The notes under the pieces were generated by a model, which saw only the letters and a program-made list of their open reading frames with translations, did not search any database and was not told the origin of the DNA. Source: Ruminococcaceae bacterium UBA1375 (GTDB taxonomy: Bacteria > Bacillota > Clostridia > Oscillospirales > Ruminococcaceae). Taken from it: a stretch of DNA of 64,000 bases. The stretch covers positions 3,409 through 67,408 of the forward strand of contig DBRF01000006.1 of assembly GCA_002305795.1 (NCBI GenBank). The letters are read 5' to 3'. Shown here in pieces: positions 304 through 62,976 of the stretch (position 1 is the stretch's first letter; each line of letters opens with the position of its first letter). The position numbers were made by a program, and so were the translations under genes.

Positions 304-503
304 CTTCCCTTTGATGAGAAGGCGGGATGAAGGATGAGAGTTCTTCCGCTGAATATAGAATTGACAGAAATGTCGTCTTTTGGTAAAATAAAGACACGGC
401 TTTTGCCTACTCCAAATTGGGGGGCAGAAGGATGGAGTTATAAAACGGTAAGCGGTTTCATCCCCTAAATTCGAGGATTTTACTTGAAAGGAGGGGATGT
501 GGT

Positions 504-581
504 GTGACGTGGGAACAATTTTTCATGGTCATCCAGACAGTTTTGTCGGCCCTTCTTGTGTATTATTCACGGAAGAAGTAA
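504..581 (+). CDS. small hydrophobic peptide, putative type I toxin (holin-like toxin type), module A
   Basis: GTG at 504 lies 7 nt after the SD aaaGGAGGGG (487-496). The 25 codons give VTWEQFFMVIQTVLSALLVYYSRKK. The same frame is conserved in copies B (11588) and D (46538) with synonymous third-base changes (acg/aca, tcg/tct, gcc/gct/gcg, ctt/ctg). Promoter: TTGACA 361-366, 17 nt, TAAAAT 384-389. Confidence 0.7.
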   Translation: MTWEQFFMVIQTVLSALLVYYSRKK

Positions 582-587
582 AAAAGA

Positions 588-698
588 CAAAATAAGGCAG
601 CCGCTCAAACGAAGTCCCTGAGCGGCTGCTTTTGCACCTAAAGGGGACGAGCCGTTTTCGATGGGTTGCTTCCGACAATCCCACAGCTCAATCCTTCT
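588..698 (-). ncRNA. putative antitoxin sRNA convergent to toxin A
   Basis: Minus-strand promoter TTGACA (733-728), 17 nt, TATAAT (710-705). The predicted transcript begins near 698 with AGCAGAAGGAT and ends at the shared hairpin 598-630 plus a T-rich tail on the minus strand (cttattttgtctttt). It has no SD-preceded ORF. Confidence 0.5.
597..635. terminator. bidirectional intrinsic terminator shared by toxin A mRNA and the convergent sRNA
   Basis: gcagccgctca / tgagcggctgc stem around an 11-nt loop. It is followed by tttt on the + strand and preceded by an A-rich tract (a T-tract on the - strand). Confidence 0.75.
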
Positions 699-11092: not shown

Positions 11093-11128
11093 AAACAACC
11101 GCTCCTTAGATGGGCGGTTGTTTCAGTT
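11093..11128 (+). terminator. intrinsic terminator after the carboxypeptidase gene
   Basis: acaaccgc / gcggttgt stem followed by a T-rich run. Confidence 0.65.
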
Positions 11129-11587
11129 TGTCGAAAAAATATTTGCAATCTCCTTGGCAGCTTTTACGCAAATCCCTCACGGATTGCCTGTAATCAGCCT
11201 TCAATAGGGGATGGAAAAGGAATGCCGGGACAAAGGCTTCCCCCAGGGGGGAAGCTGCCGCCGCAGGCGGCTGATGAGGGGGAAAGGGGAATTTTTCACC
11301 GGCAAAAACCGTGACGTACCGCAAAAATTGTCTGCTAAATTTCCCTGAGATGAAATGGGTTCACCCATGCCGCACCTCATCCTTGGCCGCACCGGTTTGC
11401 AGAAAAGCCAAACAGAAGTTAGCCCCATTGCCTTATGGGGAAATTGACAGGAATGTCATTTTTTGCTATAATCAGGCTACGGCGAAAGCCCACCTGCTTC
11501 GGCGGGGGAAGGATAAGGCATTTCAAACGGGAGTGGTTGATCCCCTGTACATCCGTCAAGTTATTTTGCTTGAAGGGAGGGGGTGAG

Positions 11588-11677
11588 ATGACATGGGAAG
11601 ATTTTTTCCTGTTCATCCAGACAGTTTTGTCTGCTCTTCTGGCATATTTTGCTTGGAAGAACAATCGGACAAAATGA
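11588..11677 (+). CDS. small hydrophobic peptide, putative type I toxin, module B
   Basis: ATG 11588 follows the SD gaaGGGAGGGGGtgag. The 29 codons give MTWEDFFLFIQTVLSALLAYFAWKNNRTK. Promoter: TTGACA 11444-11449, 17 nt, TATAAT 11467-11472. Confidence 0.7.
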   Translation: MTWEDFFLFIQTVLSALLAYFAWKNNRTK

Positions 11678-11764
11678 AAACAGCCGCTCGATTTGGCGCT
11701 TGAGCGGCTGTTTTCTTAACAGCTAAATCAAAGGGTCAACCGTTTCCGGTCTTATCCTTTTTCT
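11672..11764 (-). ncRNA. putative antitoxin sRNA convergent to toxin B
   Basis: Minus promoter TTGACA (11799-11794), 17 nt, TATAAT (11776-11771). The transcript reads ..AGAAAAAGGATAAGACCGGAAACGGTTGACCCTTTGA.. and ends at hairpin 11681-11710 (cagccgctcg...cgagcggctg in minus sense) plus ttttcatttt. It overlaps the toxin stop codon. Confidence 0.5.
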
Positions 11765-14558: not shown

Positions 14559-15014
14559 GTCATAGAAAATGACTTATGAAATCCCTCACTTGCCAGGCCA
14601 GATGTCCGGCCTGCCATCCGGCTTCGCCGGAACCGTTCGGGACTGCGGGTGGCTCCCCTGAGGGGAGCGGTTGGAAACTGCGGATACCGCCCACCGTCCT
14701 TGAGCGGACAAAGCTTTCCTCTCAAGGGGAAGTCCAGCTTGTCGAAAAAGGTCGCTAGCGGCCTTGGCCCCCTTTGACGAGGGGGCTGTCAGCGAAGCTG
14801 ACTGGGGGAGAGAAAGCGAGAAAGATCACTCTATCTTAGGAAGTGCAAAACAGGCTGTTTTCTCTCCCTCCGCCCATGCCGATGGCATGGACACCTCCCT
14901 CATCAGAGGGAGGCAAGACGCTAGACTTGTTTCCTAGCATTTCATTTAATTTAAGCGAACCCTTTAGATTTATGATAGAAATTTATAATTCACAATTTTT
15001 GGAGGTAGTATACT

Positions 15015-17064: not shown

Positions 17065-18222
17065 GTGGCGGATAAGAGAGATTATTACGAGGTGCTGGGG
17101 GTGCAAAAAGGCGCCGGGCAGGACGAAATTAAAAAAGCCTACCACAAGCTGGCCAAGCAGTACCACCCCGACCTGCACCCTGGGGACAAAGAAGCAGAAC
17201 AAAAATTCAAAGAGGTCAACGAAGCCTACGAGGTGCTCAGCGATGAGCAGAAGCGGGCCAAGTACGACCGGTTCGGCCACGCCGGGGTGGACCCCAACTA
17301 CGGGGCAGGCGGTCCGGGAGGGGCCGGGGGATTTGGCGGTTTCTCCGATTTAGGGGACATCTTCGAGAGCTTCTTCGGAGGCGGTTTCGGGGGCAGCACC
17401 CGCCGTGCCAACCCCAACGCACCCCGCCGGGGCAGCGACATCCGCACCAGCATTGTGCTGGACTTTATGGAAGCCTGCCACGGCTGTACCAAAACCGTAA
17501 CCATCAACCGGCAGGAAAACTGTTCCGCCTGCCACGGCACCGGCTGCGCTGCGGGGAAAAGCCCCCAGACCTGTCCGGACTGCCATGGCACCGGCCAGGT
17601 GCAGTACGTTCAGCGCACGCCTCTGGGCAGCATGAGCACCTCCCGGCCCTGTCCCAAGTGCGGGGGCAAGGGACAGATCATCAACGACCCCTGCGCCAAG
17701 TGCGGCGGAACGGGGCGGGAAAATGTCCGCAAGACCATCCAGGTCAACGTCCCTGCCGGCATCGACGACGGCCAGACCTTAGCGGTCCGGGGCCAGGGCA
17801 ATGCCGGATCCAACGGCGGCCCTGCCGGGGACTTGGGGGTTGCGGTGACGGTGCGGCCTGACCCGGTGTTTGAGCGGGACGGCTACGACATCCATTGCGA
17901 CTTCCCGGTGAGCTTCTACCAGGCGGTGGCGGGGTGCGAGCTGAAGGTGCCCACCATCGACGGGGAAGTGAAGTACACCATGCCCGCCGGCACTCAGCCC
18001 GGCACGGTGTTCCGGCTGCGGGGCCGGGGGGTCACCGCCCTCAACGGCCGGGGCCGGGGGGACCAGTACGTCCACATTGTGGTGGAGGTGCCCAAAAACG
18101 TCCGGGGCGAGAGCTTGGCAAAACTCAAAGAGTTTGAAAACACCTTAAACGAAAAAAATTACGCCAAGCAAAAAAGTTTCTTTGACAAATTGAAACAGCG
18201 GTTCGGAACGTCAGGAAACTGA
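17065..18222 (+). CDS. dnaJ: molecular chaperone DnaJ
   Basis: 385 aa with a GTG start. It has a J domain (YYEVLGV..HPD), a G/F region and four CxxCxGxG zinc-finger repeats. The stop codon lies inside hairpin 18205-18228. Confidence 0.95.
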
Positions 18223-18230
18223 CGTTCCTC

Positions 18231-18453
18231 AGACTGTAGAAAAAGTAAAATTTAGGTCAAGCCTTTTTAAAGGCTTGTGGGGTTGCAAGGGGCAAAGCCC
18301 CTGCAATGGAAATTATTTGTCCTAAAAATTCTTATTTCTGTCTTATTCTTGCAAAAAAGTTGTGGAAGTGACGAACTTGAATCCGCCCGCCCAACGGCGT
18401 AGAGCCGAGGGCGGGTCAATCTGGAAACATCCGAACCCTTTTTCGACAAGCTG
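18231..18453 (+). repeat. LE-family mosaic element (copy LE-1) in the dnaJ 3' region
   Basis: It starts AGACTGTAGAAAAAGTAAAATTTAGGTCAAGCC and ends CTTTTTCGACAAGCTG. It is collinear with 46023-46292 and flanked by two copies of the hairpin ggaacgtcagg(a/t)aactgacgttcc (18205-18228 and 18455-18478). Confidence 0.8.
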
Positions 18454-18630
18454 CGGAACGTCAGGTAACTGACGTTCCTGAGTCCGCCCTTTGCGGCCAA
18501 AAGTCGGGCCGCAATTTCGCCCGAGGGCGAAAACCGGGTGAACTTTTGTTGAAAGAAACGGAAAACCATATTTTTGGTTTGTTGGAAACAATCCACGGGA
18601 ATCGAACCGGTTCGCCGTCGGATACTAAGG

Positions 18631-18662: not shown

Positions 18663-18952
18663 GGACAGAAAGCGGCGTGGCGCAAACAGTTTCCCTTTAT
18701 AAAACATTCCGGTATCATTTGACAAAAGAGGACTGCATCGGTATAATAAATTTACGGCGCAAGCCTACTCGGGGAAATTCCCCGGGGGAGGATAGAACCT
18801 TGGATTGATGTTCCAATCCATCTGCAACGGCAGCGGTTGACGCCCCTGATTCTCGATTCGCCTTCCGCCGTTTGGCGAGATGAGAAAAGGGGGTGGATAA
18901 TTTCTTGTGATGTCGAAAGAAATACTTCCCTCTTTGGAAAGGGGGAAGTGGT

Positions 18953-19048
18953 ATGAATTACGTTACTTGGCCGGATTTGTTCACATTTTTATTGTTGGCA
19001 ATCACCGCTTTGGACGTGTTTTACAATATTTGGACAAAAAGAAAGTAA
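18953..19048 (+). CDS. small hydrophobic peptide, putative type I toxin, module C (divergent)
   Basis: ATG 18953 follows the SD gaaaGGGGGAAGtggt. The 31 codons give MNYVTWPDLFTFLLLAITALDVFYNIWTKRK. Promoter: TTGACA 18719-18724, 17 nt, TATAAT 18742-18747. The leader is ~200 nt. Confidence 0.6.
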   Translation: MNYVTWPDLFTFLLLAITALDVFYNIWTKRK

Positions 19049-19125
19049 CCGCTCAAACTAGGCCCTTGAACGGTTACTTCATGTAATCCAATGCAGGGAC
19101 GAACCGTTGTCGGTTCTATCCTTCT
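19033..19125 (-). ncRNA. putative antitoxin sRNA convergent to toxin C
   Basis: Minus promoter TTGACA (19160-19155), 17 nt, TATAAT (19137-19132). The transcript reads AAAAGCAGAAGGATAGAACCGACAACGGTTCGTCCCTGCATTGG.. and ends at hairpin 19045-19077 plus tttctttttg. It overlaps the last toxin codons. Confidence 0.5.
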
Positions 19126-31689: not shown

Positions 31690-31808
31690 GCGGGGGAAAT
31701 TGCGCCGTTGGTGGGGCAGATTCCGGATAGCTGTTTCTATCACTTTATTTCAAATCTGTTTTTAATTCTGTCTAAATATAGAAATTTACATTATAATTTC
31801 GATACAGA

Positions 31809-31924
31809 GACTTTGCCCCTTAGAATCCACTGCGTGGGATTCGACCCCACCATGCCTTCGAAAAACGATCTTCGATCTTATTTTCTAAAAGGCTTGACCT
31901 AAACTTTACTTTTTCAACACTCTA
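31809..31924 (-). repeat. LE-family fragment (5' half, reverse orientation) with T-arm-like submotif
   Basis: The reverse complement reads ctAGAGTGTTGAAAAAGTAAAGTTTAGGTCAAGCCTTTTAG...CGAAGGCATGGTGGGGTCGAATCCCACGCAGTGGATTCTAAGGGGCAAAG, collinear with 46023-46135. Confidence 0.75.
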
Positions 31925-31925
31925 G

Positions 31926-31951
31926 CGGCCTGCTTCCCGGCAGGCCGTTTT
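31926..31951 (+). terminator. intrinsic terminator-like hairpin abutting the LE fragment
   Basis: cggcctgc / gcaggccg stem followed by tttt. Confidence 0.6.
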
Positions 31952-45954: not shown

Positions 45955-46022
45955 ACAAGCTCACTGCTGCTGTTTTGAAATCGCATCTGGAAAGGAAAAA
46001 GGACGCTGGGAGGCGTCCTTTT

Positions 46023-46292
46023 AGACTGTAGAAAAAGTAAAGTTTAGGTCCAGCCTTTTAGGAAATAAAATCGAAGATTTTTTTCCGAAGGCATGGTGGG
46101 GGCGAATCCCACGCAGTGGATTCTAGGGGGCAAAGCCCCTGCAATGGAGATTGTTTTATCCAAAAACTCTTTCTTCTGCCTTATTGTTTGAAAAAAGTTG
46201 TGGAAACAACAAATCGGAATCCGCCCGCCCAACGGCGTAGAGCCGAGGGCGGGTCAATGCGGAAACATCCGAACACTTTTTCGACAAGCTGA
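46023..46292 (+). repeat. LE-family mosaic element (copy LE-2) in the 3' region of the hydro-lyase gene
   Basis: It starts AGACTGTAGAAAAAGTAAAGTTTAGGTCCAGCC and ends CTTTTTCGACAAGCTG. It contains the T-arm-like submotif (46085-46123). It is flanked by two copies of the hairpin aaggacgctgggagg(c/t)gtcctt (45999-46020 and 46293-46314). Confidence 0.8.
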
Positions 46293-46537
46293 AAGGACGC
46301 TGGGAGGTGTCCTTTGAGTTTTGTTTGTTTTGATATTGTTGAATATTTGTTTGAAAAGCCCGGTAAACAGTCCGTGGATTGACATGAAATCTCATTTTTT
46401 GTTATAATACCATCATGGCTTTTGCCTACTGGTATTTACCGGGGCAGAAGGATGAAGCCAATCGATCAATGATCTATAACGGTAGCGGTTTGCCCCTTAC
46501 ATCCGTCAAGTGATTTTGCTTGAAGGGAGGGGGTGGT

Positions 46538-46618
46538 ATGACATGGGAAGAATTTTTCATGTTAGTACAGGCGATTTTGTCTGCGATTCTGGTTTATTAT
46601 GCCCGGAAGAACAAGTAA
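46538..46618 (+). CDS. small hydrophobic peptide, putative type I toxin, module D
   Basis: ATG 46538 follows the SD gaaGGGAGGGGGtggt. The 26 codons give MTWEEFFMLVQAILSAILVYYARKNK. Promoter: TTGACA 46379-46384, 18 nt, TATAAT 46403-46408. Confidence 0.7.
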   Translation: MTWEEFFMLVQAILSAILVYYARKNK

Positions 46619-46710
46619 GACAAAATAGAAGTAACCGCTCAATCGGCACTTAGAGCGGTTACTCGATAACATAGACTCTAGGGGCTAGCCGTTTCCGGCT
46701 TCGTCCTTCT
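46618..46710 (-). ncRNA. putative antitoxin sRNA convergent to toxin D
   Basis: Minus promoter TTGACA (46744-46739), 16 nt, TATAAT (46722-46717). The transcript reads AAAAACAGAAGGACGAAGCCGGAAACGGCTAGCCCCTAGAG.. and ends at hairpin 46631-46662 plus ttctattttg. Confidence 0.5.
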
Positions 46711-61792: not shown

Positions 61793-61824
61793 CAAAAAAA
61801 TGCCGCCCGGAGATTCCGGGCGGC
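61793..61824 (-). terminator. intrinsic terminator for rfbD plus the LE-3 3' UTR
   Basis: The minus strand reads gccgcccggaatctccgggcggc followed by attttttt. Confidence 0.8.
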
Positions 61825-62106
61825 GGAGGTTGTGGAAAAAGGATTCGGTATGTTCGAAACAAGCCTTCGGCATGTTTCCGGATTGACCTGCCCTTGGCTT
61901 TACGCCATTGGGCAGGCGGATTCCGTTATACTATGCCACTTACTATGCTACATGGATGCACTGCCACGGACCCTTATAATAGACTCCGTATTGTTTGCGG
62001 GGCTTTGCCCCAGAATCCACTGTGTGGGATTCGACCCCACCATGCCTTCGGAAAAAAAGATTTTCAATCTTGTTTTCCTAAAAGGCTGGACCTAAACTTT
62101 ACGTTT
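61825..62106 (-). repeat. LE-family mosaic element (copy LE-3) between the rfbD stop codon and its terminator
   Basis: The minus strand reads gagCTGTAAaaacGTAAAGTTTAGGTCCAGCCTTTTAGG...CCGAAGGCATGGTGGGGTCGAATCCCACACAGTGGATTC...GGAATCCGCCTGCCCAATGGCGTAAAGCCAAGGGCAGGTCAATCCGGAAACAT...CTTTTTCCACAACCTC. It is collinear with LE-2. Confidence 0.8.
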
Positions 62107-62976
62107 TTACAGCTCTACCGGGTGATATTCCCCTACGTTTTTCAAGAACCGGGTCAGGGCGTCCTGCCAGGCAGGCAGGCGGTGGAATCCGGCCTGTTCC
62201 AGCTTGTCCTTGCTCATCCGGGAGTTTTTGGGGCGCACCGCCTTGGAAGCGCCGTACTCCTCGCTGGTCACCGGCTTGACGGTGACCTTTTTCCCGGCCT
62301 GGCGGAAGATCTCCACCGCAAAGTCGTACCAGCTGCACAGACCTTCGTTGGTGACGTGGTAGGTGCCGTACTGCTCGGTGCGGATCATCTCACACACCAG
62401 CTTGGCCACGTCGGGGCAGTAGGTGGGGGAACCAATCTGGTCGTTGACCACCGTTAAGGTGTCGTGGGTTTCACTCAGCCGCAGCATGGTGCGGATAAAG
62501 TTGTGGCCGTGGTCGGCAAACACCCAGCTGATCCGCAGGGTGAAGTACTTGGTAAGCAGCTCCTTCACTGCCTGTTCCCCTTCCAGCTTGGTAAGGCCGT
62601 AGAAGTTGCTGGGGCCGGTGGCGTCATCCTCCACATAGGGGGTGGTGCCGGTGCCGGGGAAGACGTAGTCGGTGGAGAAGTACATGAACTTGGCGTCCAG
62701 CTCTTTGGCGCACTGGGCCATGTTCCGGGTGCCCTCCACGTTTACTTTCCGGCAAACCTCCCGGCCTTCGTCCTCCGCCTTGTCCACGGCGGTGTAGGCG
62801 GCGCAGTGGACGATGACGTCCGGGGCATAGCCCAGCACTGCCTGTCGCACCGCTTTTTCATCGGTGAGGTCGAAGTCGTCGATGTCTACTCCCCAACAGG
62901 GGACGTTTTGTGCTTCCAGACAGGCGACCACATCGCCGCCCAGCTGTCCTTTCACGCCGGTGACTAATACTTTCAT
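62107..62976 (-). CDS. rfbD: dTDP-4-dehydrorhamnose reductase
   Basis: 289 aa with MKVLVTGVKGQLG and YGLTKLEGE (YxxxK). Confidence 0.92.
   Translation of the reverse strand: MKVLVTGVKGQLGGDVVACLEAQNVPCWGVDIDDFDLTDEKAVRQAVLGYAPDVIVHCAAYTAVDKAEDEGREVCRKVNVEGTRNMAQCAKELDAKFMYFSTDYVFPGTGTTPYVEDDATGPSNFYGLTKLEGEQAVKELLTKYFTLRISWVFADHGHNFIRTMLRLSETHDTLTVVNDQIGSPTYCPDVAKLVCEMIRTEQYGTYHVTNEGLCSWYDFAVEIFRQAGKKVTVKPVTSEEYGASKAVRPKNSRMSKDKLEQAGFHRLPAWQDALTRFLKNVGEYHPVEL

Follow-up and report, generated by a model that had tools for sequence, protein, structure and literature searches.

Insertion sequences of the IS1182 family are recorded in ISfinder with direct repeats of 0–60 bp. Two members from staphylococci, IS1272 and TnSha1, insert into hairpins of varied sequence, often just downstream of genes, and remove the hairpin wholly or partly, with no duplication (PMC4923244, PMC5678879); Siguier 2015, as quoted in both of these papers, states that some members of the family target palindromes. 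Duplication of a whole stem-loop is predicted for the case where joining takes place at its 5′ feet (pathway b, Figure 13 of PMC5678879). Such an outcome is attributed to IS1630 of Mycoplasma fermentans, an IS30-family element that duplicates terminators according to a title cited in PMC3317919; a passage of PMC2853133 puts the duplication at 19–26 bp, and one of PMC3317919 gives flanks of 16–26 bp. Long target duplications are also a feature of the IS1202 group, where their length is fixed for each element (16–17 or 27–28 bp; range 16–28 bp) and the ends are TGT...ACA (PMC10132070).

Here we consider LE-1, an element of 224 bp without an open reading frame that lies between two copies of a hairpin at the end of a dnaJ gene, in a stretch of 64,000 nucleotides (the window) from a 1.5-Mb assembly of 23 contigs that is 83% complete. 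LE-1 is very probably a MITE derived from an insertion sequence of the IS1182 family and moved in trans by the DDE transposase of that family, which would read a stem-loop. Its relatives resemble IS1272 and TnSha1 in the family of the transposase and in their targets, which comprise stem-loops or terminators of various sizes and are chosen without regard to primary sequence. The two differ in outcome, since IS1272 and TnSha1 delete the hairpin whereas at LE-1 the whole hairpin has been duplicated, matching pathway b, and LE-1 is a non-autonomous derivative. LE-1 adds a new MITE to a family for which the targeting of hairpins has already been described, with a duplication outcome known from IS1630. 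The features of the locus are as follows.

17065..18222, plus strand: dnaJ coding sequence, from the ORF list and the sequence; its last codons and its TGA (18220–18222) lie inside the target hairpin, the TGA in the 3′ arm.
18204..18229, no strand: left copy of the target-site duplication of LE-1, 26 nt, CGGAACGTCAGGAAACTGACGTTCCT, holding the hairpin 18205–18228 with a 10-bp stem and a 4-nt loop.
18230..18453, plus strand: LE-1, a non-coding MITE of very probable IS1182-family origin, 224 bp, CAGACTGTAG to CGACAAGCTG.
18230..18245, plus strand: terminal inverted repeat of LE-1, CAGACTGTAGAAAAAG, the TGTA variant, which autonomous relatives have downstream of the transposase gene.
18438..18453, minus strand: terminal inverted repeat of LE-1, CAGCTTGTCGAAAAAG, the TGTC variant, which autonomous relatives have upstream of the transposase gene.
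18454..18479, no strand: right copy of the target-site duplication of LE-1, 26 nt, differing from the left copy by one A-to-T change in its loop; host sequence continues with GAGTCC...

A first-pass annotation of this DNA had noticed that the 24-nt hairpin containing the dnaJ stop codon recurs with one change at 18455–18478, and this holds on the sequence, the left copy reading GGAACGTCAGGAAACTGACGTTCC and the right one GGAACGTCAGGTAACTGACGTTCC, with a single change in the loop. When the window was searched with up to three mismatches allowed, the hairpin was found at these two sites only, compared to an expectation of 0.00 from 100 shuffles. The duplicated unit is 26 nt long, as it extends one base past the stem of the 24-nt hairpin in either direction, and the left copy folds as.((((((((((....)))))))))). 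with −11.4 kcal/mol (DNA parameters). The insert does lie exactly between the copies as had been described, with a size of 224 bp (18230–18453) and not 223. The match that had been seen to continue into the flanks (c/g-ag) is not part of the duplication, as the CAG at the left boundary already belongs to the element, forming its first three bases, and the GAG at the right is host sequence that a congener also has at its empty site. LE-1 starts with CAGACTGTAGAAAAAG and ends with CTTTTTCGACAAGCTG, and these ends are imperfect inverted repeats with the consensus CAGNYTGTMGAAAAAG. The only open reading frames over it are long spurious ones on the minus strand that extend far past the element, and no Rfam family matched LE-1 in a search of the window, the one match there being a T-box leader (RF00230, 924–1180, 93.5 bits). 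The left hairpin copy leaves the C-terminus and stop codon of dnaJ intact. No T run follows the dnaJ hairpin, and therefore the target need not be a terminator.

The resemblance noted earlier between the element end TTTTTCGACAAGCTG and the dnaJ codons TTCTTTGACAAATTG just upstream of the hairpin is real (11 of 15 positions), and we attribute it to chance: 2.3% of random 40-mers from the genome reach 11/15 against TTTTTCGACAAGCTG, and the codons in question are conserved coding sequence in congeners without the element. The other 17 flanks from nine insertion sites (two flanks each) reach only 7–10 of 15.

Two further repeats were noticed in the window. The block immediately after the right hairpin (18480–18545; GAGTCCGCCC...CGGGTGAACT) contains two inner hairpins between inverted ends of its own, GAGTYCACCC; as it is also found in congeners, it looks like a second small repeat family. 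A separate module present four times in the window (367–600, 11450–11690, 18725–19050 and 46386–46620) combines promoter-like TTGACA/TATAAT motifs with a leader and a short ORF of hydrophobic character (MTWEEFF...), with two of its copies just downstream of LE elements.

The host and its four congeners are represented by metagenome-type draft assemblies (82–86% complete), and three of the congeners, G002, G003 and G004, could be aligned over the 3′ end of dnaJ at 86–91% identity. In G002 the gene ends in a single hairpin followed directly by TGAGTCC, with no element, so that the site equals the window sequence minus the element and minus one hairpin copy, exactly. A similar picture emerges for a second member of the family in the window, LE-2, where G004 has one hairpin and no element. 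These single-hairpin sites show that LE-1 and LE-2 are insertions, that the duplication was made at insertion and that the hairpin is host sequence. The first-pass annotation had named two outcomes that would refute its reading, hairpins already doubled where the element is absent and hairpins belonging to the element consensus; both were looked for, and neither occurred. The flanking hairpins could in principle belong to the element, or both could have been there beforehand. A palindrome at either end does look like an extended terminal inverted repeat, and an aligner treated a Listeria copy of a related element in just that way, yet the flanking duplications differ at every locus and the empty sites hold only one hairpin, leaving this reading with a practically negligible probability.

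Other arrangements were seen in the congeners. G003 lacks both the 18480–18545 block and the dnaJ hairpin, and its dnaJ ends in KFGN*. The LE-2 hairpin of G003 (G003:C136, L088; the site homologous to window positions 45998–46315) is occupied by an element that is related to LE-2 but different from it; CAGCTTGTCGAGAAACCCCGCACCGCAAAAATGCAG is present there twice in direct orientation, which recalls the tandem left-end duplication reported for IS1272 (PMC5678879). In G004 (C71, L002; reverse complement, about 1200–1585) the dnaJ hairpin takes part in a tandem duplication of about 110 nt, of which the unit is the hairpin and a downstream block of 85 nt, GAGTCC...GGGTGAACT, the copies being 19–20 nt apart (CCATCCCAAAAATTACAGTA); either a very long target duplication whose insert has mostly been lost or an unrelated event could account for this.

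We collected further MITE copies in the genome by BLAST and pattern searches. About 17 two-ended copies were found, along with further fragments, with members ranging from 168 to 277 bp. Those in the window, with their flanks, are given below.

45998..46021, no strand: left duplication copy of LE-2, 24 nt, AAAGGACGCTGGGAGGCGTCCTTT.
46022..46291, plus strand: LE-2, same MITE family, 270 bp; single-hairpin empty site in G004.
46292..46315, no strand: right duplication copy of LE-2, 24 nt, with one C-to-T change.
61826..62117, minus strand: LE-3, a diverged member, 292 bp; its right end abuts a hairpin (61801–61825) and T run.
31700..31924 (lower coordinate approximate), minus strand: LE-4, truncated at its right end; its left end abuts the hairpin GGCCTGCCGGGAAGCAGGCC (31927–31946).
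14735..14750, plus strand: solitary end of the TGTC type, CAGCTTGTCGAAAAAG; the partner end was not found.
11124..11139, plus strand: solitary end CAGTTTGTCGAAAAAA, directly abutting the hairpin AACAACCGC...GCGGTTGTT.

LE-2 is flanked by a hairpin of a different sequence from that of LE-1, AAAGGACGCTGGGAGG(C/T)GTCCTTT. On the other side of LE-3 no hairpin copy is left, and the stop codon of the upstream gene falls within the element end. Across the genome, abutting duplications of 20–32 nt are present at 10 of the 17 two-ended copies, each of a different local sequence, and all nine that we tabulated fold as hairpins. Alignment scores for the ten range from 14.5 to 29.5, compared to a mean of 6.4, a 99th percentile of 10.25 and a maximum of 15.5 when flanks were paired across different copies. 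The remaining seven copies have no clear long duplication, being decayed, nested or truncated, and one of these shows just a 7-nt duplication (AAGTTTT) that is not a hairpin. Some copies with perfect duplications look recent. Cataloguing the copies, as had been suggested, therefore places the hairpins outside the element consensus and, together with the congener sites, supports the idea of hairpin-directed insertion.

The same annotation had allowed for template switching, and replication slippage or switching at a hairpin, with no transposition, would have the attraction that hairpins stall replication and that the duplicated unit is a hairpin. We found no evidence for it: the same element with defined ends sits exactly between differing duplications at at least ten loci and in several other genera, full-length relatives encoding a transposase behave alike, and precise CAG...CTG boundaries every time are not expected from such a process, which we consider extremely improbable.

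What is duplicated can be described more generally from 18 insertion events tabulated in four genomes. In all 18 the unit is one complete stem-loop of 12–39 nt with 0–1 nt unpaired at each end, the stems being 4–17 bp, the loops 3–9 nt and the energies −2 to −20 kcal/mol, and the 18 target sequences are unrelated. Since every unit is a complete stem-loop despite this range of lengths, a ruler of fixed distance does not fit, and the cuts appear from these sequences to be set by the structure of the target, with the joints following the feet of the stem. The IS1202 group was considered as a source and rejected, as the elements here have CAG...CTG ends and duplications of 12–39 nt compared to TGT...ACA and a fixed length. 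LE-1 shares with that group an unusually long target duplication, 16–28 bp in IS1202 elements (PMC10132070), and differs in that the latter have a TnsB-like transposase and no known structural target.

LE-1 has what is expected of a MITE, in that it is short and has no transposase gene, its ends are common to an autonomous element, and the family shows target duplication, dispersed copies and presence/absence polymorphism. Autonomous elements were found in a survey of 401 genomes from 166 genera of the bacterial family, where the end motif occurs in 112 genomes and 72 genera (the reversed pattern, used as a control, gives 0–2 matches per genome). Sites inspected in other genera are mostly MITEs of 160–250 bp between perfect duplicated terminator hairpins of 25–30 nt. 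One genome, G046, contains an element of 1562 bp with the ends CAGCCTGTCGAAAAAG and CAGCTTGTAGAAAAAC and a single ORF of 482 residues (P0001), which scores 389 bits against the IS1182-family model NF033551 of NCBIfam (cut-off 270) and has the Pfam domains DUF772, DDE_Tnp_1 and DDE_Tnp_1_6. A terminator hairpin of 39 nt is perfectly duplicated on either side of this element, and four more full-length copies from four other genera have hairpin duplications of 26, 31, 28 and 31 nt. The LE-1 ends CAGACTGTAGAAAAAG and CAGCTTGTCGAAAAAG match those of 1.5-kb elements in five genomes (G046, G334, G140, G039 and G219), and the MITE keeps the asymmetry of the autonomous elements, which have the TGTC end upstream of the transposase gene and TGTA at the other end. 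Homologues of the IS1182-family transposase are present in 41 of the 401 genomes. The DDE transposase match belongs to the autonomous relatives only; palindrome or hairpin targets without sequence specificity, as reported for IS1272, TnSha1 and some members of the family, are seen in all 18 tabulated events. Two full-length copies elsewhere in the bacterial family (G304:C56, L075, and G051:C8, L078) have a different hairpin on each side, as expected if two copies recombined.

Similar examples are found in public records outside the bacterial family. ISEfa7 (Enterococcus faecium), whose end is CAGACTGTAGACAAA, lies between two copies of one hairpin, and the Listeria plasmid pLIS32 carries an IS1182-family copy with a hairpin duplication of 21 nt. 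Both are like the MITE in their nearly identical ends (CAGACTGTAGACAAA; the ISEfa7 end CAGACTGTAGACAAAA matches LE-1 CAGACTGTAGAAAAAG at 14 of 16 positions) and duplicated hairpin flanks, and unlike it in being full-length autonomous elements in Bacilli. Their transposases are 47–49% identical to the Oscillospiraceae one (47% for ISEfa7), and the plasmid-borne relatives closest to the transposase come from Oscillospiraceae. We found no published description of these flanks, which were read from the records, and our literature search found no paper on whole-hairpin or terminator duplication by members of the IS1182 family or by their derivative MITEs.

In the host genome and its four congeners, drafts that are 82–86% complete, no gene for an IS1182-family transposase was found; a search of five MITE-rich genomes with PF01609 gave no match, and no long element bounded by MITE ends was found in the host genome. 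Partners of other kinds were also considered. A transposase of the IS30 family, of the IS1630 type, could be thought to move the MITE. The sequence TGTAGA inside the MITE end resembles what we take to be the start of the IS30 inverted repeat, and the same behaviour has been published, with duplicated terminator inverted repeats of 19–26 bp according to a cited title and a passage of text (PMC3317919, PMC2853133). Against this, the IS1630 transposase is of the rve type, unlike that of the LE-1 relatives, the host genome has no IS30-family gene, and the autonomous elements with exactly the ends of the MITE encode IS1182-family transposases. We searched the host genome and 150 genomes of the bacterial family for such a partner and rejected it, as the IS30-family elements found have other ends and no hairpin duplications; we regard this origin as very unlikely.

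The first-pass annotation had named IS200/IS605 TnpA, RAYT and reverse transcriptases as candidate mobilising enzymes. Movement by a single-strand HUH enzyme of the first two kinds would draw on the central place of hairpins in their mechanism, and the 5′ part of a gene for an IS200-type Y1 transposase does lie at a contig end (G000:C11:128053–128232), about 140 nt after another MITE copy. The two are separated by a scaffold gap of Ns, however, and the flanking hairpins of the MITE are host sequence and not part of the element. IS200/IS605 elements are known to have neither terminal inverted repeats nor target duplication, and the element has both, as do its autonomous relatives with an IS1182-family DDE transposase; a HUH enzyme thus has little to recommend it, and we give it a very low probability. 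A 606-residue open frame with an RVT_1 match (89.5 bits) at G000:C16:78026–78847 is probably a group II intron protein; none of the enzymes named earlier is the best fit. Genes with an rve domain in the genus were also examined and rejected: an IS3-family copy in G004 merely adjoins a MITE end, IS481-like fragments are unrelated, and the match in the host genome is an IS3-family transposase fragment (...YDNALAENFF...) cut by the contig end (G000:C4:53739–54287).

For an IS1182-family transposase acting in trans on the MITE, the hairpin duplications can be accommodated as follows. The enzyme would recognise a DNA stem-loop and not a target sequence, and the two 3′-OH ends would attack both strands where the 5′ feet of this stem-loop lie; when the single-stranded gap on either side is repaired, the entire hairpin would be copied, leaving the element between two copies. 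The target would probably be duplex DNA in which the palindrome is extruded as a cruciform, where the two feet would be neighbours at the four-way junction and cuts staggered by the usual short distance in space would lie far apart in sequence. The same element and transposase might instead use a hairpin on single-stranded DNA, on the lagging-strand template or in a transcription bubble. The hairpins are short (4–17 bp stems, −2 to −20 kcal/mol), so that strong negative supercoiling would be needed to extrude them as cruciforms, and many of the targets are terminators in transcribed DNA at the ends of genes. However, a two-sided duplication calls for cuts in both strands, at opposite feet, for which duplex DNA is the simplest substrate, and no orientation bias was evident on inspecting a few sites (uncounted), so we think a single-stranded target rather unlikely, if worth keeping in mind. 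Going beyond LE-1, we tentatively suggest that in this clade of the IS1182 family the secondary structure of the target may set both strand-transfer sites, which would be the 5′ feet of an extruded cruciform, that the length of the duplication may be read off the target instead of being dictated by the transposase complex, and that the staphylococcal relatives that delete hairpins may differ only in the foot that is attacked.

These findings reveal no new kind of system, and the long hairpin duplication that had been considered unusual is indeed long and less unprecedented than supposed, as hairpin targeting is already known from the IS1182 family (PMC4923244, PMC5678879) and duplication by IS1630 is indicated by a title and passages in PMC3317919 and PMC2853133. 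For annotation, a class of repeats in a small gut-bacterial genome and its relatives can be described as transposon derivatives that land on the hairpins at gene ends, and the LE family helps to explain the long non-coding gaps seen here. Duplication of the hairpin leaves the upstream gene with its own end, at dnaJ the stop codon, and insertion would thus be harmless; where the target is a terminator, each side retains a copy. The insertions and their empty sites document the duplication of a whole hairpin, an outcome that for IS1272 had been drawn only as a possibility. If the tentative proposal regarding the 5′ feet were true, both outcomes, hairpin duplication and hairpin deletion, would occur within a single family, and the MITEs that abound in these gut bacteria would serve as natural reporters of how it works.
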